Below, piece by piece: positions 4-45,119 of a DNA stretch of 64,000 bases. The first letter of the stretch is position 1; every line of letters begins with the position of its first letter. The position numbers and the translations under genes are program-made. The notes beneath the pieces are model-generated. The model saw only the letters and a program-made list of their open reading frames with translations. It had not been told where the DNA came from and searched no databases. Source of the stretch: Candidatus Omnitrophota bacterium (GTDB lineage: Bacteria > Omnitrophota > Gorgyraeia > Gygaellales > Profunditerraquicolaceae); assembly GCA_023227985.1 (NCBI GenBank), contig JALOCB010000003.1, positions 5,260 through 69,259 on the forward strand, read 5' to 3'.

Positions 4-3000
4 ATGATCCAGCGTCTGGCTATTAATAATGGTACTGCCCACGGCAATAACTATGACGCTGACGGTAAACTTATTGAAACACAGATGAATTTGAAGATGA
101 CCGCGGCGATCGCCGAAGTTATTAAGGCGTATGGTATACAGATAGTCCAGCACGGCGTGACCGGAACGCCTATTAAAAATCTCCAGGCATTGCGTAATGT
201 CGGGATCAGGGCCGCTCATGTCGGGACCAATTGGCAGAATATTATTTGGGAAACTTTAGTTGCCCAGGCGCAGGCGGGTAATTCGACCGCTAAGTCCATA
301 GTAAACCGGATGATCGATGCGACTATCGCTAAGACTGCGGACGTGGAGAAGAAGTATAAAGTATCCGGCCGAAGCGCAGAAGCCAAGGATAGCGTTTATG
401 TCCCGGGAAAAGACAAGAACCTGGACAAGCTGATCGGTAAAGAATTAAAGATGGTATTAGGTGTTTTCAACGACGAGTTGGTTGCTCTTCCTGATGACTT
501 GATTGCCAAGATTGATGAGGCCACCGAAAAATCCGCTACCGAGCATATGCTGGGTTTCGGTTCTGACGGAACAGCCCAGATGGTAAAGGATGATTATGCG
601 GTTCAGGGGTTGGTTTATCCTGAAGATTTCTCCTCGATCAAAGGATTATATGCCTTTAAGGCGCTCGAAGGAACGGATAAGACGATTATGTGTTGTAATA
701 TACGTTCGCCTCTAAGCATTAGGGGTATTATGCGCGCGGCCCAAAAAACAGGCAGCGTGGTTATTTTTCAGCAGGCAATGAGCGAATTCGATTATACCTG
801 GAAAGGCGGCTATGCCCCGGAGAATGCGGCTAAGCTTGCCCGTAATATCAAAGAAGCTGCAAAAAAAGAAAATTTCCACGATTTCATGATTAAGGGCGAT
901 CATCTTACGGTTAAAGTTGATGATGCTTTCTTGAAGGATAAGGCGGCGCAGGATGCTGTTGCTGTGGTATTTGAGAAAATATTGGATGAACAGGATGTTT
1001 CCAAGCGGGAAGCATTGTTCAACGCTGCATCCAAAGACGAAGTTCTTTTAGCCAATGCCGGCGTAGCTAAAGCAATGAAAGCGGTAAATAAGGCTATGAC
1101 CTTGATCAAAGAAGAAGTTGCTTCGGATTTCACTGTTTTTGCTTTAGACGCGTCATTTATGCCTACCAGGCTTAATGTCCTGGTCAGCGCTTACCTGGCG
1201 GGGTTTATTCCCCAGGATGCAGGTTTGGAAGCTGAAGTTGGCGAGATTGGCGGAAAAGAAAATTCCACGGTTGCCGACGCGTTGGAATTCATTACCGGTA
1301 TCAGGTTCAAGGAAGAGGTTGTGGTCAGCCAGGGAGTGAAATATTCTCAGCTGGTCGGTCCGAGAAGGATCGGTGTTCTTACCGGCGGCGGACCTGCTTC
1401 CGGGCATAACGCGGTGATCGCGGCAATGGTCCGCGAAGCGGAGCAGCGGGGGATCGAGATCGTGGCTATCCCTGAAGGTTGGGCTGGTTTGACCAAGGAT
1501 GAAGTAGCCGCGCAAGCCAAGGTTATAACTATTAAAGATGTGGAAAAGTGGGGGAAGAAAGGCGGCACAATGCTGGGGACCAGCCGCACCAATCCGTATA
1601 AGAAAGAAGGGGACGCCCAGAAGGTTTGGGATAATATCCAGAAGTTAAAGCTTGACGGTCTGGTAACTCTCGGCGGTGATGATACCAACGGGGTTACTTC
1701 CAAACTGCAAAAAGAACATCCGGATTACTTATTCATTGGTCTGCCTAAGACCATGGATAATGATATAGCGCTTCCGGAGAGTGACGCGCAGACCTATGGT
1801 TTTGACAGCTTTACCGTCAAGGCCTCTGAATCGTTCGAGGCTGGAAAGATTGACGCGCAATCTACCCATAGGATACTGATCGCTGAAGTTTTTGGAAGGG
1901 CGGCCGGATTCGTTTCTGCGCGTATCGGGGCCAATATAGGGGCTACCCGCACACTGATCCCTGAAGAATTGGTTGATCTTTCAAAGTTAGTCGAGGATCT
2001 GCGCAGCTATTATAAGAATAATAAATACGGGGTTGTTGTGGTTGCCGAAGGGGCAAGCGTCAATGTTGATGGTTTCAAACTGGATGAAAACGGGGAATTG
2101 ACAGTTGTTAAGCCCGAAGACCCGGATGTAAAATTGTTGCTGGCCGCATTTAAGAGCGATCCTATGGCCAAAGCGGCTTTTATCAAGTCTATGAAAGCCG
2201 AGATGGATGATTTTGGCCACAAAAAACTGGAGAATGTCGGTCTTATTGTCGCAGCTGTGGTAAAAACCGCGTTAAAGGCGGATAAGATCGATATTAGCTT
2301 CGCCGGTAAAGCGGATTATCTTTTTCGCTCCGCCGATGTTTCCAAATTGGACGCTGAAATGACCACTATGCTGGGGAAGGCCGCTGTGGAGAAGATCGCG
2401 GATATCCAGAATGATCAGTTGCTTTACGCTTACAAGGGGCAGATTAAATCCATACCGTTTGCCCGGGAATTAGGCGGAAGGGTCCTGGATTACAAAGGCG
2501 CCCATAAAGATGAATATATGTTGGCCAACCTGGCGCTTATTGATGAAAAAACTGAAATAACGCTTTCGGATGCATCGGTTAATGAGGACTTGTTCCAGGC
2601 AGCGGTTAGAAACTTAAAAGGACTTAACCCGGGCGAATTAATGACTCTGAGTTTTTCGGAGATGAAGGTTTTGTTATGGAAGCTTAATAGCCTTGATCAA
2701 GAAACCGGGGACAATCAGGAAGTAGTTCAGTCTGTCAGAAGGATTCTGCATAGGATAGACGACAGGCAGATAGAACAGGTCAAGAAATTTGCCAATATCG
2801 GCGTGTTTGCCCGAGAAAATACTGCGTATAACCTGGAATCAGTGCTTAAGGATGACAATATCCTGGTTATCGCGGCTAACGCGCTTATTTTTCGCGCCGG
2901 AGCCTTTGCCGAATTCTATCATAATTGGGAGCCGGGAGTTAACCTCGCGGCGATCAAGTCTATGAAAGGCGGCAAAGAAGCTACTGCCGAGGAATTTGTC

Positions 3001-4767
3001 CGGCAGAACAGCCGTTATAACGGACCTTTTAGCCCGTATCAGTTAAAAGGTTTGCGCGTGCTTAAGGATGAACGCCGGGTGATTGATGGTGTCGCTGTTA
3101 ATTTCATTTTCGTGCCCGCGGATAAGAATATCGGAAGGCCGGATATCAAGATACCATATTTCGGCCCGGAAACAACTAACCAGCAGGTGCTTGATACTAT
3201 GAAGGCCTTAGGTTTAGAGTTGGATGTCATGGCCTATTACGGCCCGACCAGCGAAACGGTTCAGCCCAGGATATTCAAGGAGTTCATTGAGGCTGGATTG
3301 CCTGTTGTAGCAGCTTCTCCGGTCAACACCGACGCTGTAAAAAATATGCTCAAAGCTAAGTTTCAGCAGGAAGGTGTTGCGGATGATATGCTGGATGAAG
3401 CGGTGAGTAAGGCTTTTAAGGAAGGTTTGTATTCCGCTACCCGTAAAGAAATCGGCGCGGATGTCAAGATCGTGGATACTTTAAGCTGCACTTCCAATGC
3501 CATGATTTCGGTTATTAAAGCAATGTGGGATAAGTTCGGTATCGATCATGGTACCGGCCTGACTATTCATTCCCAGACTGATTCCAATGAGACTTTCCCG
3601 ATGAAAAGCGGCAGGGCCAGGGATCCCCTGGATATCGCCCGCGGCGATTCCATCCGTGACAACATAATCCCTGCTTCAACCGGCGCAAAAAAGAACCTCT
3701 TTAAGATGATCCCGGAATTAAAAGGCAGGTTCGAGATCACCGCTGTTCGCACCGGTACTGTTTCGGCTTCGACCTGGGAGATGACCATGGACCTTAAGAC
3801 TGAAGTGACCAGGGATGATGTCCTTGCGGCTTTAAAGGATTTCGCCCTGAATAAGACCGACGGGGTGGTGAAATTTCACGAAGGAGACCCGGACAGGAAT
3901 CCCGGGCCTCTGGACGCCAACGCCGTGGTCGGCTGGAATAATGTTTCTATTATCGACAGTTTATTGATCAATGTTCTGGATAATAAGAAAACAGTGACTA
4001 TTAAAGGTTTGTATGATAACCAATCAGCGGCGCCGAATCAAATGGTTTCTAAATGGTCGCCGTGGATGGTTGACGGTTTAAGGCTGCGCCAGATAGTCGG
4101 CGAAAAGAACAGCAAAAAGCTGAACAAAGCCGAAGCTGTAGCGTATGCCAAACTCAACGCCGGTTATGCCGGCCTGCTTAAAGCCGTAAGCGCGGTAAAA
4201 ACCAGCGGAGCTCTGGTGGTCAGCGCTGACGTGGTCTTAAAGAACGCCGGGACGCTTTCATCGCTCAAAGCCTTGAAAGAATCAGGCGCTCTTATTGAGA
4301 TCATTGTCCAGGCGAACAACAAGGCTGTCGCTGATAAAATGGTATCAATGGGCGTTGAACAATTCGCGAGCATTCAGTTCAAGCAGGTTAACGCGATAGT
4401 AGAAGAGTTGAATACCAAAGGTATAACTGATGAAAGAATAGTAGTGCTTAAGACCAAAGCTGAATCGAAAGAAGAAGTCAAGAATACCGTCAAGGTGGTC
4501 AATGTCGGCGAAGCTAAAGTCGCCGAATCTTCTGTTAATGCCATGTCGATAGCAGTGGCAAAGGCAGTAACCACCGTGTTGCAGGATAATACGGAGGTTG
4601 TTGATCAATATCAGCAGATGGCGAAGAATTACGCCGAAGCTAACGACGTCGAGCTAAGCAAACTGGAAGATCTGACCAGCCAGATCTCGGATATGCCGCT
4701 GGTTAAGGTGAGCGAAGAAGTGGTCAAGGCTCAGGTTACTTACGAAGAAACTGTAAACAAGATCTAA
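4..4767 (+). CDS. Giant multidomain glycolytic fusion protein, 5'-partial (N-terminus lies upstream of the window). Domains in order: class II aldolase C-fragment, complete class II fructose/tagatose-bisphosphate aldolase, PPi-type phosphofructokinase, about 100 aa unassigned, divergent GAPDH, shared C-terminal module.
   Basis: The first ~95 aa match an aldolase C-fragment (GTAHG, IVQHGVTG, VGIRAAHVGTNWQ). Aldolase motifs: EAEVGEIGGKEN, SPLSIRGIMRAAQKTGSVVIFQ. PFK motifs: GVLTGGGPASGHNAV, LGGDDTNG, PKTMDNDI, EVFGRAAGF. GAPDH motifs: LSCTSNAMISVIKAM, TIHSQTDSNE, RGDSIRDNIIPASTGAKKNLFKMIPELKGRFEITAVRTG. C-terminal ~190 aa are near-identical in layout to the ORF2 C-terminus. Confidence 0.8.
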   Translation: MIQRLAINNGTAHGNNYDADGKLIETQMNLKMTAAIAEVIKAYGIQIVQHGVTGTPIKNLQALRNVGIRAAHVGTNWQNIIWETLVAQAQAGNSTAKSIVNRMIDATIAKTADVEKKYKVSGRSAEAKDSVYVPGKDKNLDKLIGKELKMVLGVFNDELVALPDDLIAKIDEATEKSATEHMLGFGSDGTAQMVKDDYAVQGLVYPEDFSSIKGLYAFKALEGTDKTIMCCNIRSPLSIRGIMRAAQKTGSVVIFQQAMSEFDYTWKGGYAPENAAKLARNIKEAAKKENFHDFMIKGDHLTVKVDDAFLKDKAAQDAVAVVFEKILDEQDVSKREALFNAASKDEVLLANAGVAKAMKAVNKAMTLIKEEVASDFTVFALDASFMPTRLNVLVSAYLAGFIPQDAGLEAEVGEIGGKENSTVADALEFITGIRFKEEVVVSQGVKYSQLVGPRRIGVLTGGGPASGHNAVIAAMVREAEQRGIEIVAIPEGWAGLTKDEVAAQAKVITIKDVEKWGKKGGTMLGTSRTNPYKKEGDAQKVWDNIQKLKLDGLVTLGGDDTNGVTSKLQKEHPDYLFIGLPKTMDNDIALPESDAQTYGFDSFTVKASESFEAGKIDAQSTHRILIAEVFGRAAGFVSARIGANIGATRTLIPEELVDLSKLVEDLRSYYKNNKYGVVVVAEGASVNVDGFKLDENGELTVVKPEDPDVKLLLAAFKSDPMAKAAFIKSMKAEMDDFGHKKLENVGLIVAAVVKTALKADKIDISFAGKADYLFRSADVSKLDAEMTTMLGKAAVEKIADIQNDQLLYAYKGQIKSIPFARELGGRVLDYKGAHKDEYMLANLALIDEKTEITLSDASVNEDLFQAAVRNLKGLNPGELMTLSFSEMKVLLWKLNSLDQETGDNQEVVQSVRRILHRIDDRQIEQVKKFANIGVFARENTAYNLESVLKDDNILVIAANALIFRAGAFAEFYHNWEPGVNLAAIKSMKGGKEATAEEFVRQNSRYNGPFSPYQLKGLRVLKDERRVIDGVAVNFIFVPADKNIGRPDIKIPYFGPETTNQQVLDTMKALGLELDVMAYYGPTSETVQPRIFKEFIEAGLPVVAASPVNTDAVKNMLKAKFQQEGVADDMLDEAVSKAFKEGLYSATRKEIGADVKIVDTLSCTSNAMISVIKAMWDKFGIDHGTGLTIHSQTDSNETFPMKSGRARDPLDIARGDSIRDNIIPASTGAKKNLFKMIPELKGRFEITAVRTGTVSASTWEMTMDLKTEVTRDDVLAALKDFALNKTDGVVKFHEGDPDRNPGPLDANAVVGWNNVSIIDSLLINVLDNKKTVTIKGLYDNQSAAPNQMVSKWSPWMVDGLRLRQIVGEKNSKKLNKAEAVAYAKLNAGYAGLLKAVSAVKTSGALVVSADVVLKNAGTLSSLKALKESGALIEIIVQANNKAVADKMVSMGVEQFASIQFKQVNAIVEELNTKGITDERIVVLKTKAESKEEVKNTVKVVNVGEAKVAESSVNAMSIAVAKAVTTVLQDNTEVVDQYQQMAKNYAEANDVELSKLEDLTSQISDMPLVKVSEEVVKAQVTYEETVNKI

Positions 4768-4773
4768 CATTCT

Positions 4774-4828
4774 CAAGACCCGGTCTTGCATCCCAATGAG
4801 TCCTAATGGGTTGCAAGACCGGGTCTTG
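4774..4828. repeat. Paired 15-bp GC-rich palindromes forming a ~55-bp imperfect inverted repeat between megagene 1 and megagene 2. First copy CAAGACCCGGTCTTG at 4774-4788, second copy CAAGACCGGGTCTTG at 4814-4828. Candidate transcript-processing, attenuator or REP-like hairpin.
   Basis: Read directly. The two 15-mers are reverse complements of each other and flank the partial palindrome CCCAATGAG-TCC-TAATGGG. The same 15-mer recurs at 12744-12758. Confidence 0.6.
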
Positions 4829-4925
4829 AACATGTCTTTATATGAATAAGATAAATCCGTTTCAATTTAAAAACCGCAACAGGCAGAAGTTGTAATTTAA
4901 TTCAAATCATCAACCGGAGGGAAAA

Positions 4926-7900
4926 ATGTTCGTAAGGTTATCCCAAAACAACCTGTTCAGGAAGATCGTCGGCATTCTTATTCTTTTACAATTTTCAGCC
5001 GGTTTTGCCGTGATTAGGGGTTATGCTGCTCCCGGAAATTTGCGGCCTGCCGCCGTCAAACAGGATGGTTCCCGGTCCGGGACTATCCAGAATTCGCTTG
5101 ACGCGGCCAGCCTGGATAAGGTTATAAAAACCCCGGTCATTCATAAGGACGGCGGTATAACCGGCCAGGATGTTTTTAAGAATATCCTTGGCGAATACCG
5201 TGTTTCCTCCACGATAAACAATCTCGCTTTCGGGACGTTCGTCCAGGGGCAGATCGACCTTAGTTCGGTTCAGAACCGGGAAGCGCTGGTCAATAATTTC
5301 GGGGAGATTAAGAGCAAAGATCGTTTTTTTACCCTTGAATACGCGGGAATTCCGCTTGCCCTGGTCAAGAAGGCCGAAACCGGAGAAATTACCGTCAAGA
5401 AAGTAGTCGAAGACATTGCTTCGATCCCGCTCAACATCCTTTCCGACAATGCCGAAAAGCTCAAAACCGAAGGTGTTACTTCCTCGGATATCCTGGTCCG
5501 CGATTTTCTTATCCTTGAAAAAAGGTCGCGTATCGACATCACTCAGTGCATGACCGTAGAGTTTGGCGAGCTGCGCGACTACGTATACAATCTGGCTAAA
5601 AATGTCGGCCAGGAAAAGGCACTGGAGATGGCATCGGCGTTTGCGGGTAAGGCTACCGTTGACGAGGCTATGGCGGAAGTCGGCGAGAAAGCTAAGCAGT
5701 TAGGCCGCGACCAAGCGAAGGACACAGGTCTGGCGCTGGCCGGCGGTAAGGGTTTGAGCCTTTCGGTCATGAGCCGCGTGGTTGACGTGCCGCCTGGTTT
5801 GAACGTTACTACTACCGCGTATTTTAAGTTCGTCAAAGATAATAAACAGGTCTGGGAGAAGATCTTTAATGAGCTGCAGACCTTGGATACTATGGATGAC
5901 CAGAAGCGCGACGTTGTCACTTCGGAGATCCGCGATGTCATTAAAAGCGCGCCGATACCCGAAGACATCAAGGCTGAGGTAACAGCAATGTACCACCAGC
6001 TAAGCGTTATCCGTTTTCTTGCCGGTAAACCTTCGCCCGCTCCGGTGGCTGTCCGCTCTTCCGGCACCAAAGAGGATATTCACGTTAAAACCTGGCTGCC
6101 GGTTTCCACCGGTTCCCAGGCCGGCCAGTCGGATACATTCCTTAATGTTAAGGGCGAACGGGATGTCCTGGATAAATTACGCGCCGATTGGGCGTCTTTA
6201 TTTACCGATCGCGCGGTCAGCTACCGTGATGACGCCACCTTCTTGCAGTTCTCTGGAGCCATCGATTTTAACGGTAAGACTTCTCAGGATGTCTATTGGG
6301 GGATCGTGGCGAAGCTTCGGGAATACTCCAAGAAACTGGATAAGCCTGAATATAACGTGTACGCTGACTTAATGAGTAAAGTCACCAGCCCTAACCCTGG
6401 GTCGGTGAGCCTGATGAACGCCATGGAGGAGATCCTGAGACAGGAATCGAATCCGGAGATGTCCAATGCCCTTGCCGTTCTGAAGAAGAAAGCAGAGGAG
6501 GTTGTGCATCCCGAACAGATCGGTATCGACGTTGTGATCATGCAGATGGCTAAGAGTTATCTTGCCGGCGTGCTTTTTACCGTCAATCCGGCGACCAAGA
6601 TGGCCGGTGTGGCCCAGTCGTTATACAAGTCATGGTATATGGGTGATGATTCGCTCGTGTACCGCGACGCGAAGACCGATATTATCCAGGGAACCAGGCC
6701 CATAGTGGTGAGCTTTGATGTGGCCTTCGGCTACGGCGAGAACGTAGTCGGCGGCAAGGTAAACCCGGACAAGTTCATTATGGGCACCTACGACGGCGAG
6801 AGCTGGTTTGTTATCGAGAAAAGCAAAGGCAATAAACTTATTCAGATGAAGGACGTGGAAGAAGTCATCGATCTCCTCAAAGACAAGATATCGGAAAAGG
6901 GCCAGCGGCAGCTCGCTATGACCGTGAAAGACGCGATCGCGTATGATGAGGTCGGCAAGCGGATCAACGGCATTATGGCGACCAAACTCTACGGTATCAA
7001 GTATCTTAAGGCGCTTGAGGGTAAAGAGGAAAGCGATAAAGACAAGAAGGCCCGCGTACAGGCTATCGCCAATGAGATTGCCGACATGGTCAAGAATAAG
7101 GTTTCCGAGGATGAAGTTGTCGCGTTCATCAAGGGTAACTTTGAGGTCGTTAACCGGAAGGGCTATAAAGGCATTCAGGAAATGGCGCTTTCGGGAGTGG
7201 TCAGGGAAGTGTTTGAGAAAGTCCAACAGGCCCAGGCTGAGACCGACCGGGGTATGTTTAAACTCTCAAAGCAGCTCGGCGATATGGGAAAGGCCGATAC
7301 GCTTATCCATATGATCAAGGAGGTTTGGGAGAATAAGGAATTTACTCTTTCCGACCGCCAGGCGATTCTTGACAAACTGAACCTTACCAACCAGGAATTG
7401 CGTAATATGAGTTACCTTATCCGCGCGCTGGTGGATAATAGCTTTACTTCAAATTATGAGACTACTTTAACCCACCAGGATACCTTTACTATGACCGATG
7501 ATCAGGCCCAGTATGTGGCGCGTATGGGTTGGGCGATCACCGAATATTATAAGGATGCCCGAGATATAGAGTATGCCATCGAGATAGATAAAACCGCTTC
7601 TTCCGACAAAGCGGTGAGGCTTTACGTTGTGGACGACCTGGGCAATGTCCAGGGAATGGACAATAATGGCAACCTGGTAACGGTGAAGTCCGAAAAGGAT
7701 AAAGCGCGTATAAAAGAAGCGAAGCTGCGCCTGTATAACGTGCAGGCCCGTCCGTATACCGCGGAATACTTGAAGGTGGATGTAATGCGCGCCCGGACCG
7801 AAGCGGATGAAAAGTGGCTTGAGGAGAATTCTCCTAAAGCGATTGCCAGCGGGACTAAGGGAGAGAACGCGACGCAGGGTTATGTGCTGGTGTTCGATCC

Positions 7901-10900
7901 TAACAAAGACGTTGCCTGGCACGCGGACCAGATCCGTCGTTTGAAAGCCGGAGATTTTACTGCGGAGGAAAAAGCCCAGATCATGGCTATGGGGTTTAAT
8001 CCCGAAGAGTATGGTTCAGGCAAAGAAAAGCAATTGTCGGTTATTCTTTATCTGCTTGAAGCTGACCCGAATCATGATCCGATCATGCGCCTGGTTGATT
8101 CGGTTGTTACTATCCGCGGCGGCGATACCTGCCACGCGGCTATCTTTTGCCGTGAACAAGGGATCCCTGCGGTCACCGGCGCGGGCAAGGTTATACTCAA
8201 CGGCCAATTGCTTAAGACCGGTGACGCGGTTACCGTTGATGCTAATAACGGGAATATTTACGAAATGCCCGCTGATGCCGGAGCGCGCATTCCGATCAAC
8301 TACGTGAAATTCAAGATTAAACCGTATGGCATCCCCGGCGACGACGACAATATGCCGTATCCGGGCATCGGCCAGATCATCGCCGCGGCAAGTGCCGCTC
8401 AGCAGAACTCGCCTATTATGCTTGCGGTTGACGCGGTCGGTAACTCGCTGACCCGCGCCGAGTTCAAAGGCGAAGAGATCGGTATCAACGTTTACGCCGG
8501 CTATGGCCATTATCTTTTACAGCAGATCAAGGCCGGAAAAATAAAGGAGCCAGTGAGGGTGCGTGTCCAGGAATTGATCCAGGGCAAGGTTCCCGGCGCA
8601 AAGAGGTTCGTGGACAATATTGAAAATGTTATGGCAGGCGCTTTTGCCAAGGATCCCGCCGCGCGTTCGGCATATCGCGACATTATGGGTAAGGATTTCA
8701 ATAAGGCGGATAGCCTGCAATTGCTGGAGTTTTTCGATTTGAAGAGCGACATTGAGCTGTATGGATTGGATGCGCTTAAACTGGTAAAACAGCAGGTTGA
8801 TATTCTTGATCTCGTTCCCCGGCTTCCGGAGAATATGTATCAGACGCTTGAATATCTTTATGGCGCCACTCAGCGCAGGCTCAACTATGATTATAATATT
8901 ATCGCCGATCTTCAGAACCATCCGTGGATACTGAAAGAAGTCGATTCTAAACTCGCGGAAAAGGGTTACGCGACGTTCAAGGAATACATCACTAACGAAT
9001 TCCTGTATTTTTACAATTTGATGGGTTTTACCATTGCGCCCGATCAGACCGCCAAGAACAGGGCTTACGATTTCGCCCAGGATAAGATCCGCGGCATGCC
9101 CGGTTCCGAGGTTTTTTCCTGGCCCGGAGTCAATCCGTTGGTCGGTTTGCGCGGTACGTCGTTGGAGATCGAGGCCTTTGACGAAGATTTCGGCGGCAAT
9201 CAGCTGGTATTGGATTTTCTTTTTGATTCCGTGATCCAGGCGCACCAGAATACCGGTAACCAAGCCTGGTTTTATGTGTTTGTCCGTTCTTCCCGGGAGT
9301 TAGAGACCCTGGATAAGATCATTGAGCACAAGGCTAAGCAGACCGGGAAGCTTCCGAAAGAGATCGGGATCATGATCGAAGTTCCCAGTGCCGCTTTGGT
9401 GGCTGATGAGCTTGCTGTTAAGATGTCCGAGATGGAGAAAAAATATAAGAAGTATGGCGTTGAGCATACTTTCTTTTCCTTCGGCACTAACGACTATTCG
9501 CATCTTGCTGGTATGGGTGACCGTGAAGACCCGCGAATGAAACTCAAGATTATGGATCCCGCAGCGATCGAAGCGATCGGCGAGATGAAAGCAGCGGGGT
9601 ATTATTATGATGATGCTGCTAAAGTGCTTCCGTTGATTGATGAAGGCGCTGATGTTATGCAGCAGCTTATGGAAACAGTGGTTGCTGCGGCTAATGGTTC
9701 AAGCGTGGCTACCTCGCTTTGCGGCGAGGCGATCACCGCCCTGGTTAACCGCGGGGATTATGAGACCGCAGGCAAGATAATGGCGCTTCTGGATTCTTTC
9801 GGCGTGAGCATGATGAAAGTCCGCCTCGCAGCTTCAATGACGCGCGTGGACACCATGGCGGCTACCAAAGGGATCACCATTCCGGAAGCCGGACGTTCGA
9901 TCCTGTTCGATTTGTCTGCCGGCGAGGTGAAACAGAAAAAGGGCGTCATCAAGGGCGAGATAATATTCGTTGATAATGCCGATGATCTCGTCCCGAACGT
10001 CCTTAAAGGCCTTCAGGGTCCGGAGCTGACGAAAAAGAAAGAGATGTTCAAGCTCCAGAGCCTGGAAAACGCCCGTTCGACTATGCGTACCTTCAATAAG
10101 ATCGTAATTATCACTAAAAACCTCGTTGCTCAGCAGGAGCCTGAGTTGGTCGCGGAGATGGGCAAAGCCGCATTCAGCAAGTTTGTCAATGACGGCCTGC
10201 TTAAAGATATCGGTAATGGGCAGTATGTCTGGACGAATCTGGGTGTAAAGACGGAGAAGTTCAACCAGGAATTGACAATTCAAGGTTTCTCTGAAAAAGA
10301 ACGTAAAGCTATTGAAGGTTTGTGGCAGAAGGCCTGGGATAACAGCATTGAAGGGCTTGAGCGCCGCGGAATTGATTGGGATGATCTACAATATGCCAAG
10401 GCTATAATCGTTGATGCGGACGTTAACCTTGATGGCTGGGATGTGTTCCGCAAGGACAAGAGTATTATTCCGACCCGTATCAAGGCTACGGTCAAAGGTA
10501 TAAGCTCCCGCCGTGCGGAGTTAGAAGGGCAATTGGCAACTATAGATTACGCCGCTAAGAAGGTCTACAAGGATTTTCTCAGCGTGGAAAAGATCGCTGC
10601 CGTCCTGCGCAGTCTTCCTATCCCAGCGGAAAAGCCTATGATAACTACGCAATCGGCTGTCGCGGAGAACGCCAACAGTGTATACCAGAAGATCGGGTAT
10701 CATCCTAAGCTCCTTCTTGCCTATGAGCGGAATGCTGTGAATGAACTTGGAAAGATATTCGAGGAATATGTAGGCAAGCTGGTTGAAGAAGTTGAAAAAG
10801 TTACTCAGGAGACCGACGTTCAGAAACGCGTATGGCTTTTACAGAAACTGCAGAATAAAGTTGGCGGGCTTGCGGAACCGATGATCAAATCGTTTATGAG

Positions 10901-12698
10901 CGATGTGCTTTCCGAGGCCATGCGCACAGGTGCGGTAACGCTGCCGGATAACTGGAACAAGAAGCTTTGGGAGGCCTATCGCAGCGACCTGGAAAGCGAG
11001 ATCAGTAAGATCCTTAACGGAAAGACGGTTGAGCAGTATTTTATCGCGCAGTTCAGCGAACAGATGAAGGAAGTGCTCTCCGCCAACAAAGGGGCATTGG
11101 TTGTCCATCTTTTGGGAAGCCTCAACTGTGTTGATTTCTTTAATATGAAAGGCGGTTTCCTGGTTGAACAGGTCAATCCCAACCCTGATTACGGCATTCT
11201 TGGAGCGGCGCGCGCAATAGGGGATATGTGGGAGATAAACCGCATGGAATTGTCCGCTTTTAAGGCGGTATGGGATAATCTGCCGGTTGACCAGCGCGGT
11301 AATTTTGGCCTGCAGATCACCAATCTCAAAGGCACCCAGTCCGGCGCGGTGGTGATCGGCTGGCGTAATATTCTGAAACAAACCGGTATTATCCCGGGGC
11401 AAGACGGTTTGCAGGTTGGCGTCAATATCGTCACTCCGGCGGATAGCATCGCTGCGGATAAGTATTTTGAGTACTTTAATACGCTCGGAAGCGGGTTAAG
11501 TTTTATCTCATATGATGCGTTGAAGCTTGGCGCTGCCTGGGCCGGCGTGGATATTTTTTGGAAGGAATGGAGGAGGCTGGCTAAGGAAGATGAGTTGTTG
11601 AGGTTCGGCGTCATGACCGGCTGGATGGCGGAAGCCAAGGCTCTGAGGTTCGGCGGCAAAGTCCTTTCCTTTGATATTTCTGACGAAGCCAAACAGACTG
11701 ACGGCGGCGCTGAGGTTGTGCCTTACCGGGTAGTGGTGGAGAATCTCTTCCGGGGGATCATTAAGAAATATGATGCTTTGGATAACGGCCAAGCTCTTTC
11801 TCTCGAAAAAGAAGAGTTGGAGGCAATACTCTGGATCTTGAATTCTTCTCCTTTTGAGAATATGTCAAGCCCGTTTGCCGCGATCAAGAGTATGAAGAAT
11901 ATCAGGAATGTGATCGAAAGGCTCAGCGATGACCAAAAGAAGGCCCTAAGTGTACTTTCACAGGGCTTGGTTTTTGTCAATCACGGGCTGGATAAAAAGG
12001 TGGCGGCATTGCTCGTAGACAAGAAGTTGCTCGACACCGCATATGAATCCGACACGGCGGTATATAAAGGGTTGAACAGCGGTTTTGACAGCTTCGCCAA
12101 TGCCTTGAAAGAGGTTAAGAATGCCGAGGGCGCTTTAGTGGTTAGCGCAAATGCTGTGTTGAATAACGCCGGAACGCTGAGAGTCCTGAGAGAAATAAAA
12201 GAAACCGGGCTGACCTTGGAAATAATCGTCCGGGCTGATACGGAAGATCAGGTGAATAAGCTGATTGCCCTTCGGGCAGACGAAGTCGCGACTATCCAGG
12301 CCAAGCGGCTGTCAGTTGTGCTCAGCGGCTTGAAGAACGCGGGTATAACCGATGGCAAGATAGTGGTGATTAAAGGCAAAGAAGAAGTAAAAGACGCGGT
12401 AGAAGCCGGCGTAAAGGTCGTAGAGATCTCCATGCCTAAAACAGAGGAGTCCAGTATCAACTCCATGGCCTTAGTTGCGGCAAAAGCGGTAATCATAGTG
12501 TTAAATGGTGAAGAAACGGTTGCCGCGCAATACCGGGAAATGGCGGTAAAATACGCCGCAGATAACAGCGTAACCTCTGAAGAATTGGATGATCTGCAGG
12601 ACCTGACCAGCCAGATCTCGGAGATACCCATGGCCAAGGTCAGCGAAGAAGTCGCTAAGGCGCAGGCCACTTATGAGGAGACTATAAGCAAGATATAA
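4926..12698 (+). CDS. Giant 2590-aa fusion protein. Domains in order: N-terminal leader, unknown N-domain, pyruvate phosphate dikinase/PEP synthase-like domain, ~730 aa unassigned region, shared C-terminal module.
   Basis: RBS GGAGGG 7 nt upstream of the ATG. PEP-utilizing enzyme motifs: ALAGGKGLSLSVM, VAVRSSGTKEDIHVKTWLPVSTGSQAGQSDTFLNVKG, GGDTCHAAIFCREQGIPAVTGAG, FSFGTNDYSHLAGMGDRED, SLCGEAITAL. The N-terminal leader RKIVGILILLQFSAGFAVIRGYAAPGNLRPAAVK is shared with ORF3. The C-terminal ~190 aa match ORF1 (GALVVSANAVLNNAGTL ... LTSQISEIPMAKVSEEVAKAQATYEETISKI). Confidence 0.8.
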   Translation: MFVRLSQNNLFRKIVGILILLQFSAGFAVIRGYAAPGNLRPAAVKQDGSRSGTIQNSLDAASLDKVIKTPVIHKDGGITGQDVFKNILGEYRVSSTINNLAFGTFVQGQIDLSSVQNREALVNNFGEIKSKDRFFTLEYAGIPLALVKKAETGEITVKKVVEDIASIPLNILSDNAEKLKTEGVTSSDILVRDFLILEKRSRIDITQCMTVEFGELRDYVYNLAKNVGQEKALEMASAFAGKATVDEAMAEVGEKAKQLGRDQAKDTGLALAGGKGLSLSVMSRVVDVPPGLNVTTTAYFKFVKDNKQVWEKIFNELQTLDTMDDQKRDVVTSEIRDVIKSAPIPEDIKAEVTAMYHQLSVIRFLAGKPSPAPVAVRSSGTKEDIHVKTWLPVSTGSQAGQSDTFLNVKGERDVLDKLRADWASLFTDRAVSYRDDATFLQFSGAIDFNGKTSQDVYWGIVAKLREYSKKLDKPEYNVYADLMSKVTSPNPGSVSLMNAMEEILRQESNPEMSNALAVLKKKAEEVVHPEQIGIDVVIMQMAKSYLAGVLFTVNPATKMAGVAQSLYKSWYMGDDSLVYRDAKTDIIQGTRPIVVSFDVAFGYGENVVGGKVNPDKFIMGTYDGESWFVIEKSKGNKLIQMKDVEEVIDLLKDKISEKGQRQLAMTVKDAIAYDEVGKRINGIMATKLYGIKYLKALEGKEESDKDKKARVQAIANEIADMVKNKVSEDEVVAFIKGNFEVVNRKGYKGIQEMALSGVVREVFEKVQQAQAETDRGMFKLSKQLGDMGKADTLIHMIKEVWENKEFTLSDRQAILDKLNLTNQELRNMSYLIRALVDNSFTSNYETTLTHQDTFTMTDDQAQYVARMGWAITEYYKDARDIEYAIEIDKTASSDKAVRLYVVDDLGNVQGMDNNGNLVTVKSEKDKARIKEAKLRLYNVQARPYTAEYLKVDVMRARTEADEKWLEENSPKAIASGTKGENATQGYVLVFDPNKDVAWHADQIRRLKAGDFTAEEKAQIMAMGFNPEEYGSGKEKQLSVILYLLEADPNHDPIMRLVDSVVTIRGGDTCHAAIFCREQGIPAVTGAGKVILNGQLLKTGDAVTVDANNGNIYEMPADAGARIPINYVKFKIKPYGIPGDDDNMPYPGIGQIIAAASAAQQNSPIMLAVDAVGNSLTRAEFKGEEIGINVYAGYGHYLLQQIKAGKIKEPVRVRVQELIQGKVPGAKRFVDNIENVMAGAFAKDPAARSAYRDIMGKDFNKADSLQLLEFFDLKSDIELYGLDALKLVKQQVDILDLVPRLPENMYQTLEYLYGATQRRLNYDYNIIADLQNHPWILKEVDSKLAEKGYATFKEYITNEFLYFYNLMGFTIAPDQTAKNRAYDFAQDKIRGMPGSEVFSWPGVNPLVGLRGTSLEIEAFDEDFGGNQLVLDFLFDSVIQAHQNTGNQAWFYVFVRSSRELETLDKIIEHKAKQTGKLPKEIGIMIEVPSAALVADELAVKMSEMEKKYKKYGVEHTFFSFGTNDYSHLAGMGDREDPRMKLKIMDPAAIEAIGEMKAAGYYYDDAAKVLPLIDEGADVMQQLMETVVAAANGSSVATSLCGEAITALVNRGDYETAGKIMALLDSFGVSMMKVRLAASMTRVDTMAATKGITIPEAGRSILFDLSAGEVKQKKGVIKGEIIFVDNADDLVPNVLKGLQGPELTKKKEMFKLQSLENARSTMRTFNKIVIITKNLVAQQEPELVAEMGKAAFSKFVNDGLLKDIGNGQYVWTNLGVKTEKFNQELTIQGFSEKERKAIEGLWQKAWDNSIEGLERRGIDWDDLQYAKAIIVDADVNLDGWDVFRKDKSIIPTRIKATVKGISSRRAELEGQLATIDYAAKKVYKDFLSVEKIAAVLRSLPIPAEKPMITTQSAVAENANSVYQKIGYHPKLLLAYERNAVNELGKIFEEYVGKLVEEVEKVTQETDVQKRVWLLQKLQNKVGGLAEPMIKSFMSDVLSEAMRTGAVTLPDNWNKKLWEAYRSDLESEISKILNGKTVEQYFIAQFSEQMKEVLSANKGALVVHLLGSLNCVDFFNMKGGFLVEQVNPNPDYGILGAARAIGDMWEINRMELSAFKAVWDNLPVDQRGNFGLQITNLKGTQSGAVVIGWRNILKQTGIIPGQDGLQVGVNIVTPADSIAADKYFEYFNTLGSGLSFISYDALKLGAAWAGVDIFWKEWRRLAKEDELLRFGVMTGWMAEAKALRFGGKVLSFDISDEAKQTDGGAEVVPYRVVVENLFRGIIKKYDALDNGQALSLEKEELEAILWILNSSPFENMSSPFAAIKSMKNIRNVIERLSDDQKKALSVLSQGLVFVNHGLDKKVAALLVDKKLLDTAYESDTAVYKGLNSGFDSFANALKEVKNAEGALVVSANAVLNNAGTLRVLREIKETGLTLEIIVRADTEDQVNKLIALRADEVATIQAKRLSVVLSGLKNAGITDGKIVVIKGKEEVKDAVEAGVKVVEISMPKTEESSINSMALVAAKAVIIVLNGEETVAAQYREMAVKYAADNSVTSEELDDLQDLTSQISEIPMAKVSEEVAKAQATYEETISKI

Positions 12699-12706
12699 TA
12701 TATTGA

Positions 12707-12758
12707 GGCCGGGTCTTGTAACCGATTCAAACGCAAGGGAATACAAGACCGGGTCTTG
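12707..12758. repeat. Second intergenic palindrome pair, between megagene 2 and megagene 3. A degenerate half-site GGCCGGGTCTTG sits at 12707-12718 and a perfect CAAGACCGGGTCTTG at 12744-12758.
   Basis: Read directly. The 15-mer is identical to the one at 4814-4828. Confidence 0.55.
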
Positions 12759-12778
12759 ATAATTAGAGGAGGGAAAAG

Positions 12779-15700
12779 ATGTCCAGGCCGTCTAAAAACA
12801 ATAGTATCTCTAAAATAATTTCCGGCGTTGTGATCGCGCAATTTATCATGAGCAGTATAGCCCTGCGCGGTTATGCCGGCACAGACAATTTAAGGCCGGC
12901 TCCGGTCAAAGATTCCGACCGGATAAGCGTTCTGGCCGATGAATTGCAGAAAGACGGCGGCAAACTGGCTGAATGGATCCATATCTTAGCGGAAAATACA
13001 ATTGTGGGCGATGCCGCTAAAGGTTCGAACGTCGGCATGGTCATACGGCTGGGAAAGCTTGTTGAAGAGAATATATCCGGGTCCATATTAGGGCATTCGG
13101 CAAACCGGAAGGCGTATATAAAGGAAGTGGGCGCTCAAATCGCTGAAGGGCTGCGTTTGACCGGAATGGAAGAAAAGGCGATCGCGGCTGCCAGCCGCAA
13201 GATAGCTTTTTCCAGATACGATAACATCATGAATCACCGGATCCAGGCGATGTTTCAAGCAGGGATCAGGGAGATCTGCCTTTGCGTAGGCAGTGATAAG
13301 GATAAGCTCACCGTTGAGGAAGAGATATCGGATGTGCTTGCGCAGTTGCAGGTGTCTTTTGCCGATGTCTCTTTGGAACAAATAAAAAAGATAATTTTCC
13401 ACGTGGCTTGGGAGCCTGCGGCGAATATCGGCACCGGTACTGCTGTCGGTCCGGAAAAGATCAAGCTGGTCCATCAGGCTATCTATGAATTCTTTGCCGA
13501 GAAGTATAATACACCCTCCGGGTATATCGGCGATGTTTGGGGGAAGTCATTGAAAATACTTTACGGCGCAAGCGTTGACGGAAAGAACGTCGACGGCATA
13601 ATGGCGGTGAAAGAGGATAAAGGCATGGCTTTGGTGCACGGCGTGTTATTCGCTTCTTCGGGTAAAAAGGCCGATGGCTTCCTGGCTGTGGCCGAGGGGG
13701 TTAGCCGCGCCGCGGAAAGGGATAACGCCCAGTATGTCTGTTTTGTCAACCTTAAGGAATTCGCCAGGGCTGAGAAAGATGAGGCTTTGACTTTTGTCGT
13801 CGAGATCGTCCGGGCCATTGCTTTAGGACGGATCGATCCCCGGCATACCATTCTGGCGATCGCTGACCAGGATGTACATCTAAAGGAGTGGCAGGACGCG
13901 ATCGTCGGCAGAAGCGTTTCGATGTCGGACGGCGGATACGCGTATGTTGAAGGAACGAACTTTAAGGACAAGAATGTGCTTTTTCGCCCGGATTATAACA
14001 CTCCGGCTTCGGTAAAGACCGATGATCAGGGTAATGTTTTGTCGATCAAAATATCCGACGCAAGCAGGATCGTTGATTCCTTCCCGGCTTTGACCAAGAT
14101 CCTGAAAGATAAGCCAAAACATGTGGTTGTCGTTGTCCATTTCGAACCTAAGGTGTTGAATCCCGCGACCGGTAAGAAAGACAAGAAAAATCTGTCTACT
14201 AAAGTCACAGCGGACAAACTTAAAGAATTGCTGCCGGCGGAATATAAAGATAAGGTAATATTCCTGGCTGATTCAGTCAATGACAATGGGATTGCCGCCG
14301 AAGCAATGCGGGCTATAGAAAGTTATACTGATTCCGAGATCATCGTATTGGAAAATATCCGTTTTGCCAAAGGCGAAAAGAAAGGTGCCCCCGAGCTTAA
14401 TGATCCTAAAGGTGTAGCTTTACGCAAACAGCTTTCAGGATTAGCGGACGAATATGTGGTGGATGCCTTGGGTAATATTCATCGCGCCCACGCATCAATG
14501 CTGCCTTTGCCCGGGGTGCATAAAGTCATGGGCAGTCTTGTGGAAAAAGAGATTAAAGTGTTCAACCGGATACTTAACCCGGCGCATCCTTATGCCGGGG
14601 TTAACGGCGGTAATAAGGTTGAAGATAAAGTGGATACCATGGATGTGTCTTTGTCGACGATGCAGGAAGGCGACGCGATCATCATCGGCGGGGCTATGGC
14701 CTACACTTTTTTAAAGGCGCAGGATCCAACATTGAAATTGGGCAAATCACTTGTTCAGGCGGATAAAGTTGATCTGGCTAAGACTATACTTGAGAAGGCC
14801 GCCCGGAAGAAGGTGCGGATAATCCTTCCAGTGGACCATCGCATCTCGGATAAACTCGCTCCCGGAGCAGCAGAATTGGTTACTGAGGGGCTGGAAGTGC
14901 CGGATGGGTACATGGCGGTAGATATCGGACCCAAGACTGAAAAAATAGTCGCCGAGGTCTTAAGTAATGCCCAGACCGCTTTTTGGAACGGCCCAATGGG
15001 CGCGTTCGAGGATGAGGCTGGTGGTTTTAATAAGGGGACTTATACGGTTGCCAGGGAACTGCAGAAAATGGGCAGGTCCGGACGCCTGGCCGGTATCGGC
15101 GGCGGGGAGACACGTATGGCAGCAATTAAGGCCGGGGTTACCGATGCTGACGGCGTGTTCATGTCCAGCGGCGGCGGTTCCACGCAGGAATATTTCGCCA
15201 AGAAAGGCAATCTCCCGGTGATCAAGAATCTGGAGAATGACGAAACCGCCCAGAAAAATCTCGTCCTCGCGGGGAAATTGGGGGTAGAACCCGCGGATCT
15301 GGCGCGTTTTGAAGCGGCAGACAGCAGTATTTATAATGCCTTGGGAGATAAACTTTTCAACGGCTATATATCTCAGGTCAGAAGGTTGCTTCCCAGGTTT
15401 TCGACAGGCCAGAAATTAAACGGCGCTCTGTCCAAAGCAGAGGTCTCTGCGGAGGTGATTAAAGATTCGCGCGGAAACAATACTGTCCGGGCAACTTTAA
15501 AGATCGGGGATATTGTTACTGTCGGCGAAGTCCCTGCAGGCGCTTCCAAAGGGGCAGCTGAGGCTTTTGCTTTTCCGCCGAAGGAAATAGATAGGGCGAT
15601 CGCCAACGTGGCGAAGATCCAGGAGATACTTAAGAACAGCGGCCTGGATATAAGCAAACACAGCGATCTGCGCAAGACGGAACAATTGATCATTGCCGCG

Positions 15701-17302: not shown

Positions 17303-17331
17303 TTACCGCAGCTGATATAAAATGTTCTTTT

Positions 17332-17386
17332 AGAGGCCTCTGGAGAATTCCTATAAAGGATTATATCAGAGGCCTCTGATCTTTTG
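17332..17386 (+). terminator. Intrinsic terminator after megagene 3. Duplicated 12-bp palindrome (AGAGGCCTCTGG at 17332-17343, CAGAGGCCTCTG at 17367-17378) followed by ATCTTTT.
   Basis: Read directly. GC-rich inverted repeats followed by a T-tract immediately after the stop codon. Confidence 0.6.
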
Positions 17387-29303: not shown

Positions 29304-29330
29304 CCGCCTGCCACGGTAGGTAAAACAAAA

Positions 29331-29362
29331 AACCCGCTCAAAATTCCGAGCGGGTTTTTTGT
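29331..29362. terminator. Bidirectional rho-independent terminator. Stem CCCGCTC / GAGCGGG, with an A-tract on one side and a T-tract on the other.
   Basis: Read directly: AAAACAAAAAACCCGCTCAAAATTCCGAGCGGGTTTTTTGTT. Confidence 0.8.
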
Positions 29363-29370
29363 TGGAAATT

Positions 29371-29765
29371 GCGGGGGCCAGATTTGAACTGACGGCCTTC
29401 AGGTTATGCTTGCTACTACAGCTTTAGCTGCTCCGCTATCAAGCGGATTCGTAGTCTGGACTATATCTTGACCAACTATCGTTGGCCCCTGCCGTTTAGT
29501 CTCTACACTTTTCTCCGTTGCCGGAGACTTAGCTCGGTATTACCTTGACTTGCGTCGAGGGTTTCACCGAATTTGACAGGATATCCTTCAACCGTTACCG
29601 GTTGAGGAGCCCTTCGGACAATAAACTCCATCGTTGCCTGTACAGTGCGGACATCGGTTTGCGCTGTCGTTTGCCGCTTTCGACTAAACTGATGGTGCTG
29701 CCGAATTTGGTAAAGACAGAGCAGGGGACGATGTAGAACACATTCAGGGGTTCGATTACAGCACC
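29371..29765 (-). ncRNA. Candidate tmRNA (ssrA)-like structured RNA. Orientation and identity are uncertain.
   Basis: The segment is ~395 nt with no credible ORF. On the minus strand the 3' end forms a tRNA-like T-arm plus acceptor (GTCAG-TTCAAAT-CTGGC-CCCCGCA-A) immediately before the bidirectional terminator. The 5' end is UUGCGGUG-CUGUAAUCGAACCCC, which resembles the tmRNA 5' motif GGGGCUGAUUCUGGAUUCGACGGGG and can pair with the 3' strand. UAGUC...GCAAACGAC lies ~94 nt from the 5' end, matching the E. coli resume-codon context. A second AND-starting frame ends in a double stop. Against this call: no clean G3-U70 pair, and no tag ending in AA. Confidence 0.35.
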
Positions 29766-44932: not shown

Positions 44933-44972
44933 CCAGTCGCAGTTCGATCTTTCGTAATGGCCGGAAGGAATA

Positions 44973-45020
44973 AAATACAACAAGTTGTATTGTTGTAGAT
45001 TAAAAATACAATATGTTGTA
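44973..45020. promoter_or_regulatory. Two tandem NrdR-box-like 16-bp palindromes with centres 32 bp apart: ATACAACAAGTTGTAT at 44973-44988 and ATACAATATGTTGTAT at 45005-45020.
   Basis: Read directly. The NrdR consensus is acaCwAtATaTwGtgt, typically as tandem boxes 31-32 bp apart upstream of nrd genes. Located upstream of nrdJ. Confidence 0.6.
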
Positions 45021-45027
45021 TTTTTTT

Positions 45028-45056
45028 ATTGACATGTTATTTTGGCGGTGATATAC
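45028..45056 (+). promoter_or_regulatory. Sigma70-type promoter of nrdJ. TTGACA, 17-nt spacer, TATACT.
   Basis: Near-consensus hexamers read directly, 64 nt upstream of the start codon. Confidence 0.6.
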
Positions 45057-45119
45057 TCACAAGATGTCAGCGGTATTTTTGTCAGATCAGGTTCAACGGT
45101 TTTATTATAGGAGGAGAAA

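Follow-up and report, generated by a model that had tools for sequence, protein, structure and literature searches.

The stretch of DNA analysed here, referred to as the window, comprises 64,000 nucleotides (nt) of a Candidatus Omnitrophota bacterium (GCA_023227985.1, contig JALOCB010000003.1, positions 5,260 to 69,259), and three very large genes (megagenes) for glycolytic fusion proteins are encoded in tandem on its forward strand. The first open reading frame (ORF), ORF1 (4-4767, open at the start of the window), is a fusion of class II aldolase, PFK and GAPDH; ORF2 (4926-12698) joins pyruvate phosphate dikinase (PPDK) to approximately 1000 residues without assignment; and ORF3 (12779-17302) is a fusion of TIM, PGK and enolase. 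ORF1 and ORF2 have a C-terminal domain of approximately 215 residues in common (46% identity), and ORF2 and ORF3 have in common a hydrophobic, signal- or anchor-like N-terminus. The subject of this report is the pair of palindromic 15-mers found in each of the two spacers between these genes, directly after the stop codons of ORF1 and ORF2, and its relationship to the repetitive extragenic palindromic (REP) elements of other bacteria and their hairpin-forming doublets (REPINs).

The spacer between ORF1 and ORF2 carries the 15-mer CAAGACCCGGTCTTG (core AAGACCCGGTCTT) at 4774-4788 and its reverse complement, CAAGACCGGGTCTTG, at 4814-4828, and CAAGACCGGGTCTTG is found again in the spacer between ORF2 and ORF3 at 12744-12758, all as read on the forward strand; these copies match the 15-mer CAAGACCSGGTCTTG exactly at 4774, 4814 and 12744. 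An earlier note on this DNA had placed the same 15-mer twice in both spacers. Three exact copies agree with that description, but the remaining copy on the forward strand, TGAGGCCGGGTCTTG at 12704-12718, is degenerate and differs from the consensus at three positions. The further statement that the paired copies lie 25 nt apart and form a long inverted repeat holds for both spacers, with arms of 29 nt that are 90% complementary between ORF1 and ORF2 (4767-4795/4807-4835) and arms of 20 nt that are 80% complementary between ORF2 and ORF3 (12701-12720/12742-12761). When up to three mismatches were allowed, seven matches to the 15-mer were counted against 1.22 expected, and none of 100 shuffles reached seven. 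The 13-nt core, AAGACCSGGTCTT, is confined to these two spacers within the window. All three differences between the degenerate copy and the consensus are transitions that leave a G.U wobble with the partner copy in the sense RNA. Because the adjoining C-terminal domains of ORF1 and ORF2 are only 46% identical, the exact 15-mer just downstream of them is not a passive leftover of an old duplication.

Each pair of copies was predicted to fold into one long RNA hairpin, and all of these hairpins were more stable than those of shuffled sequences. The ORF1-ORF2 hairpin (4767-4835, forward strand) has an 18-bp core stem with outer ACAT/ATGT pairs, and its 5' edge is the final A of the stop codon of ORF1 (TAA, 4765-4767); the predicted energy is -44.4 kcal/mol (z -8.06). 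The ORF2-ORF3 hairpin (12696-12765, forward strand) extends from the ORF2 stop codon (TAA, 12696-12698) to 1 nt short of the ribosome-binding site (RBS) of ORF3, and its stem of 18 bp contains one mismatch and three G.U pairs (-28.5 kcal/mol, z -5.2; only -18.1 kcal/mol for the minus strand). The RBS of ORF3, GAGGAGGG, together with the ATG at 12779 (12766-12781, forward strand), lies directly 3' of this hairpin, and the RBS of ORF2, GGAGGG, lies with its ATG (4926) at 4916-4928 on the same strand. Only 6 nt separate the ORF1 stop codon from the first 15-mer, and 5 nt separate the ORF2 stop codon from its own, which places both doublets within the 15-nt limit described for REPs that modulate translation.

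A third hairpin follows ORF3 (17330-17385, forward strand; -32.4 kcal/mol, z -3.0). As had been described earlier, it is similarly paired but is built from a different palindrome, TAGAGGCCTCTG (17331) and CAGAGGCCTCTG (17367), 24 nt apart, and is followed by TCTTTT; it lies outside the AAGACCSGGTCTT family and, at 27 nt from the stop codon, beyond the 15-nt limit. Like intrinsic terminators, the three hairpins are G+C-rich stem-loops located 3' of stop codons, and the post-ORF3 hairpin and the extended ORF1-ORF2 stem are followed by UCUUUU and CUUUAUAU, respectively. However, terminators have loops of 3-8 nt and an immediate U-tract, whereas the window hairpins have a loop of 23 nt with the tail CUUUAUAU after the extended stem (ORF1-ORF2) and a loop of 25 nt with the tail AUAAUUAGAGG, no U-tract and an abutting RBS (ORF2-ORF3). 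The post-ORF3 hairpin, with a loop of 22 nt and the tail AUCUUUU, is the nearest of the three to the terminator pattern. Its palindrome, AGAGGCCTCT, did not recur as a pair in the other fetched loci, nor in any Omnitrophota locus among them, and the hairpin is conserved only in three of the loci collected for comparison (L001-L003; loci are numbered with the prefix L). This hairpin, with its short U-tract, is unrelated to the REP family and is best read as a leaky terminator.

A pattern scan of the three spacers reported no terminator and no sigma-70-like site on the forward strand, and Rfam at gathering thresholds gave no match at the spacers. Elsewhere in the window, a canonical terminator is found at 29324-29363 and a canonical promoter (TTGACA-17-TATACT) at 45029-45057; the promoter, together with terminator-like signals, indicates that canonical terminator and promoter signals are present in this genome. 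Since no sigma-70-like site was found in the spacers and canonical signals are used elsewhere, ORF1, ORF2 and ORF3 are probably co-transcribed as one operon. Separately, a hairpin at 44969-45027, both arms of which are palindromic (TACAACAAGTTGTA/TACAATATGTTGTA), is followed by a T-run and then by the promoter at 45029-45057; its palindrome did not recur as a pair in the other fetched loci, nor in any other Omnitrophota locus among them.

The distribution of the 15-mer outside the window was assessed by a scan of species-representative genomes (one per species), which gave at least 120 matching stretches. Among the 120 stretches listed, 12 come from at least seven different Omnitrophota metagenome-assembled genomes (MAGs), a share judged far above expectation in view of how small a part of the sequenced species the phylum makes up, as roughly estimated. 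Within the matches listed, the 12 Omnitrophota stretches hold 50 copies of the core (up to one mismatch) in 88 kb, and the 108 stretches from other organisms hold approximately one copy each, essentially the seed match alone. Those non-Omnitrophota matches that were checked are coding, namely the 'QDPVLR' motif of GltB in Burkholderiales and a recombinase in Synoicihabitans; a cross-phylum link between REPs and REP-associated tyrosine transposases (RAYTs), considered because of RAYT-like matches in these loci, was ruled out on this ground. In the Omnitrophota loci examined, the core is intergenic, save for one ambiguous ORF call in L039, and is thus a short, repeated, extragenic palindrome, as REPs are.

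Singlets, inverted doublets and clusters (at most 13 copies per 8 kb) are all found among the Omnitrophota copies, and 18 of approximately 28 intergenic clusters begin no more than about 21 nt from the 3' end of an ORF. The doublets are inverted pairs around a spacer that are predicted to form hairpins, and their centre-to-centre distances favour 25, 32, 36-37 or 40 nt: 25 nt is found in the MAG VGKK01 and in L004, 36-37 nt in the MAG JBAZTA01, and 40 nt in both window doublets, L113 and L136. JBAZTA01 holds 34 copies in four 8-kb stretches that were chosen by the motif itself. The flanks of the window 15-mers (TAACCGATT in the ORF2-ORF3 spacer and CAACCCATT on the other strand of the ORF1-ORF2 spacer) match the 40-nt-spaced doublet of L113, a locus from another Omnitrophota MAG (TAACCCATT), and the similarity extends into the 25 nt between the copies of the first doublet (4789-4813, forward strand), the reverse complement of which (CAACCCATTAGG...) resembles the spacer of the L113 doublet (TAACCCATTGG...) and the ORF2-ORF3 spacer (TAACCGATT...). 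The shared flanks place both window doublets in one doublet family, with insertion in opposite orientations.

A copy was also found next to unrelated genes in the same genome. The 10 kb beyond the end of the window were read from near-identical contigs (JAQTRK010000004.1 of assembly GCA_028711865.1, matching the window end at 99.8%, and one from ENA, at 99.97%), and a singlet, CAAGACCCGGTCTTGTAAAC (CAAGACCCGGTCTTG followed by TAAAC), lies approximately 7 kb past the window end (L137, 17916-17930), in the spacer from which mutS and an unrelated 2751-aa gene diverge. Two further observations concern the family at large. In VGKK01 (L112, 1247-1286), a REP doublet reaches into the end of the coding sequence of a ROK-kinase-like ORF, where the repeat encodes the last five codons (VKTGS) and the TGA stop, and a transaldolase-like gene begins 18 nt downstream. 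Clusters of the same repeat and of the variant AAGTCCTGGTCTT/AAGACCAGGACTT are present in a MAG labelled 'uncultured Planctomycetales' (binchicken_co216_53; L037, 3847-5257, and L084, 4591-4640) with the spacing of 36-37 nt that is typical of the Omnitrophota MAG JBAZTA01; either the family reaches beyond Omnitrophota or this MAG is mislabelled.

One cluster lies beside a candidate transposase gene. In JBAZTA01, seven copies (L015, 7182-7378) run directly into the start of a gene for a 198-aa protein that matches Pfam Y1_Tnp above the cutoff (E 3.7e-16), displays HUH (HFH) and YIHLNP motifs, and has as its best NCBIfam match the family 'REP-associated tyrosine transposase' (REP_Tyr_transpos; 55 bits, below the cutoff of 80). 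This arrangement, as seen on the 5' flank of the gene, appears to fit that of REPs and RAYTs. REP doublets are described as forming hairpins and as being associated with RAYTs (PMC3116915), and the Omnitrophota repeats resemble such systems in several respects: a short extragenic palindrome, mostly in inverted pairs that favour certain distances and enclose a less conserved spacer; predicted hairpins in single-stranded DNA or mRNA; singlets and ordered clusters in addition to doublets; a cluster beside a Y1/RAYT-like gene in one genome; and presence or absence between related genomes. They are unlike these systems in that the core, at 13-15 nt, is shorter and forms an almost perfect palindrome of high symmetry, in that it is common to MAGs whose orthologous proteins are only 31-42% identical, and in that the density here appears low (five copies in approximately 74 kb) and intermediates of excision or insertion were not observed. 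A class of REP sequences is not known to be shared, as a rule, over so wide a divergence. Two other identities, integron attC sites and DNA-uptake sequences, were considered and dropped: neither core-site motif nor cassette context is present, and the link to a Y1 transposase and the restriction to extragenic DNA fit REPs better.

Altogether, these data make it very probable that the window doublets are members of a REP/REPIN-type family, a possibility that the earlier note had listed and that is borne out by a core that is dispersed, clustered and intergenic in Omnitrophota MAGs, by the cluster beside the Y1 gene and by the copy next to mutS. That note had also held that a 15-mer scattered at high copy through the genome without relation to these genes would be a generic REP. 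As regards identity this is largely what was found, the copies being dispersed and adjacent to unrelated genes, but the idea of a function at the ORF1-ORF2 spacer may still hold. The window doublets add a new phylum to the range of a familiar type of element and do not amount to a novel regulatory device. The combined reading, that REP/REPIN-type doublets are transcribed as intercistronic RNA hairpins in the megagene operon, is given a probability of approximately 0.65.

The spacers were then compared among orthologous operons, which were collected by way of ORF3 homologues. Three further lineages, L001, L004 and L007, in which ORF3 is 86%, 68% and 67% identical, respectively, carry the ORF1-ORF2 doublet at the orthologous position. 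A scan of metagenomes with the C-terminal domain of ORF1 found no further orthologues, and L131 and L132 are identical to L001. Stem pairs were counted on a manual, structure-guided alignment of the four orthologous ORF1-ORF2 copies (window, L001, L004 and L007) and the window ORF2-ORF3 doublet, as MAFFT set the bulged arm of L001 out of register. In this comparison of five doublets, 76 of 80 stem cells are paired, and compensatory double changes are found at pairs 5 (A-T to G-C), 8 (C-G to G-C), 12 (C-G to A-T) and 16. Of the 7 pairs in the palindrome of an individual 15-mer, 3-4 remain in L001, in L007 (3 in each of these two) and in the ORF2-ORF3 spacer, and the loop of the ORF1-ORF2 hairpin ranges from 23 to 8 nt among the orthologues. 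As far as these alignments indicate, the element that is conserved is the long stem between the copies and not two separate dyads. Diverged arms fold better on the sense strand, because their changes are transitions that leave G.U wobbles; the L001 hairpin, for example, is predicted at -41.1 kcal/mol in the sense and -25.6 kcal/mol in the antisense orientation.

More distant operons carry other hairpins at the same position. In L128 and L129 (ORF3 41-42% identical), the ORF1-ORF2 doublet is missing as a block of approximately 60 nt, and an unrelated hairpin, GCCTGCT...AGCAGGC, occupies the spacer. L134 has another unrelated hairpin (GGGGACGGG...CCCGTCCCC), and L136 again has a doublet of the AAGACCSGGTCTT family after the first megagene, with 40-nt spacing. 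A hairpin after the first megagene was found in 8 of 8 lineages (z -2.1 to -8.6), derived from at least three unrelated sequences, and none is followed by a canonical U-tract. In the window, a decayed remnant of the distant operons' hairpin (L128: TCCGGTTTGAAAACCGGCAGCAGGCATACG), comprising the apex and the 3' half, was recognized at 4856-4889 (forward strand) by alignment with L128, and its fold is no better than that of shuffles (z +0.61). The older GCCTGCT-type hairpin is decayed only where the REP doublet is present, and the remnant suggests that the REP doublet took over and that the old stem then eroded.

The second doublet has a different history. It is present in the window only and is missing from L001, L004, L007, L128 and L129, and the ORF2-ORF3 spacer is short and free of hairpins in most relatives; on this distribution, the ORF2-ORF3 doublet is a gain specific to the window lineage. 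The description of such palindromes as a feature of every inter-megagene spacer is accurate for this genome, but the ORF2-ORF3 spacer of relatives has no such element. The presence and absence of doublets at orthologous sites point to mobility of the kind known for REPs, without transposition intermediates having been seen.

Each doublet, once transcribed, would form a stem-loop of 18-29 bp that could act as intercistronic punctuation. Such a hairpin may block 3'-to-5' exonuclease decay, so that the upstream segment of the message would outlive the downstream segment; it may act as a leaky, U-tract-poor terminator, in which case the two segments would accumulate differently; or, no more than 15 nt from a stop codon, it may brake terminating ribosomes and reduce the output of the upstream gene. 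These three actions, known from Escherichia coli REPs or from similar hairpins, could operate together; a decay barrier and/or a leaky terminator would be the most likely action of the doublets. The distance of at most 15 nt to the stop codon makes braking of ribosomes possible, as reported for E. coli REPs; according to the account of Liang et al. (2015) given in PMC12306157, REPs at up to 15 nt from a stop codon stall ribosomes and lower translation. The window hairpins are similar to the REPs of E. coli and Salmonella (PU/BIME, e.g., malE-malF) in being stem-loops between cistrons of one operon that follow a stop codon and lack a U-tract, and dissimilar in that sequence and phylum are unrelated, effects on stability and translation are here predicted by analogy, and pairing of the entire doublet gives stems of greater length and stability (-28 to -44 kcal/mol). 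Work by Newbury and Higgins in 1987-88 reportedly showed that REPs shield upstream mRNA from 3' exonucleases. In the Rhodobacter puf operon, intercistronic hairpins confer segmental mRNA stability that sets subunit stoichiometry; the proposed likeness is that a hairpin between cistrons gives different upstream and downstream levels, but the puf hairpins are locus-specific and lie outside any dispersed repeat family.

The earlier proposal of processing sites or partial terminators fares differently in the two spacers: the ORF1-ORF2 hairpin is conserved with compensatory changes and has unrelated replacements in distant relatives; the ORF2-ORF3 copy is restricted to one lineage. For the ORF1-ORF2 copy, the chances that it has a selected role at the RNA level are judged to be about even from these comparisons. 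A fuller scenario is offered tentatively and is thought to be somewhat unlikely as a whole: a hairpin without a U-tract after the first megagene would be obligatory and its sequence replaceable, a REP doublet would have been captured in one clade while the ancestral hairpin decayed, a second doublet would have been recruited before ORF3, and the result would set the output of the three fusion proteins.

Several points weigh against a functional REP-type doublet in the operon. The covariation comes from only four orthologous sequences, and its statistics are weak; persistence at orthologous sites and upkeep of the stem would also be expected of REPINs maintained only for their own benefit or that of their RAYT. 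In any case, terminator hairpins are common in spacers of 100-160 nt. No RAYT homologue is present in the 64-kb window, the RAYT link is one locus in another MAG with an NCBIfam score below the cutoff (55 versus 80 bits), the enrichment in Omnitrophota is an estimate from the matches listed, and the copy number in this genome appears low (four exact and one degenerate in approximately 74 kb).

Of the rival explanations, that of neutral or selfish passengers survives best, although it is considered doubtful. The doublets would be REPIN-type insertions in permissive 3' intergenic DNA, kept by their own or RAYT dynamics and without a selected effect on the operon. Members of the family typically lie just 3' of stop codons beside all kinds of genes, including the singlet next to mutS, the ORF2-ORF3 copy occurs in the window lineage only with its 5' arm already decaying, and vertical persistence with retention of the hairpins is documented for REPINs (PMC3116915). 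Passengers would not, however, account readily for a strong hairpin after the first megagene in all eight lineages from at least three unrelated sequences, for decay of the older hairpin only where the REP doublet is present, for the wobble pairing in sense RNA retained by all three substitutions in the decaying arm, or for the location of three of four independent REP sites in inter-megagene spacers, the loci having been picked by protein homology and not by the motif. Cleavage by RNase III is improbable as the explanation in its own right. Near-perfect duplexes of 18-22 bp would be cut to divide the polycistronic RNA of approximately 17 kb into separate messages, and the length and perfection of the stems suit a double-stranded RNA substrate, but the replacement hairpins in L128, L129 and L134 are shorter (14-17 bp), and this would be a sub-mechanism overlapping the functional part of the REP-doublet explanation, not an alternative identity.

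It is highly improbable that the doublets are dedicated processing sites or partial terminators that evolved in place for megaprotein stoichiometry and are unrelated to any dispersed repeat. The position directly 3' of each megagene, the very stable stems without a canonical U-tract, and the one 15-mer in two spacers next to C-terminal domains that are only 46% identical are in keeping with such sites; however, the same core is a clustered intergenic repeat beside unrelated genes in many other Omnitrophota genomes and occurs elsewhere in this genome, and the nearest relatives lack the ORF2-ORF3 copy. An operon-specific origin is already largely refuted, as the other Omnitrophota matches do not all flank homologous megagenes. 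Operator sites, in which a 7-1-7 palindrome would be bound by a dimeric regulator with cooperation between the paired sites, had been raised earlier and can be given hardly any weight: the near-perfect dyad symmetry of the 15-mer and the conservation of the core across distant genomes suggest recognition by some sequence-specific protein, but the Y1 transposase is the most plausible such protein, the sites follow stop codons and lack a promoter-like element in their vicinity, unrelated genes have as many as 13 copies per 8 kb beside them, orthologues differ in their centre-to-centre spacing (24 to 40 nt), and the long stem between the copies is kept while the individual dyads decay to 3 of 7 pairs in L001 and L007, which argues against operators.

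The megagene operon itself is conserved in many Omnitrophota, with a gene of approximately 400 aa downstream at most loci, followed by PilZ, a sugar ABC transporter, usually an MFS gene, and a GH2 gene. Its domains are shuffled among relatives, in which GPI or FBPase is added or PPDK, TIM and PGK are fused. ORF2 varies in length, with 2590 aa in the window, 2601 aa in L128, 2514 aa in a P0003 contig, and 1424-1500 aa in L001, L004 and L007 (coordinates compared: window 4926-12698, L001 4003-9959, L004 5681-9955, L007 2522-6820, L128 2157-9962); L001 has a separate 454-aa gene with the same C-terminal tail. In the start of ORF2 (ATGTTCG...) and in the 3' portion of the spacer that precedes it, the window is similar to the distant L128 and L129 and not to the closer L001, L004 and L007. 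The length and start pattern of ORF2 suggest recombination or a mosaic origin.

Two other features of the same genome were observed. An Rfam group I intron match lies at 29437-29633 on the minus strand (61.6 bits, E 3.4e-13), and the minus-strand sequence GAAGGCCGTCAGTTCAAATCTGGCCCCCGCA beside it (flank 29364-29436) resembles part of a tRNA, namely the T-arm and the 3' half of the acceptor; this is probably an intron-containing tRNA gene, and ARAGORN reported no tRNA, with or without trial splicing. Approximately 2.5 kb past the window end, after a GAF-ANTAR gene, a 43-nt tandem repeat, GACGCAACACCAACTCTTCCGATTAAGTTGGGTGTAAATCATC, has an inverted repeat inside each unit (L137 13490-13570, L138 13490-13820, L139 4190-4320), and its copy number differs among three near-identical assemblies, one of which has an N-gap there.

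No account of such repeats in Omnitrophota was found in the searchable literature, and no paper on glycolytic fusion megaproteins was found there either; the megaproteins seem to stand out more than the palindromes do. There is no longer a need for a special regulatory code in the megagene operon, since the palindrome is a repeat that is generic to Omnitrophota. This uncultivated phylum appears to have a REP/RAYT-type system with a core common to deeply diverged members, which is relevant to the persistence of REPINs. The ORF1-ORF2 spacer is a clean natural case of hairpin turnover, in which a REP doublet replaces an unrelated hairpin at the same functional position, and the hairpins mark testable sites for balancing the expression of three giant glycolytic fusion proteins. 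If the tentative scenario of recruitment is true, a selfish repeat would have been domesticated as stoichiometry control for a multi-enzyme assembly that carries most of glycolysis.

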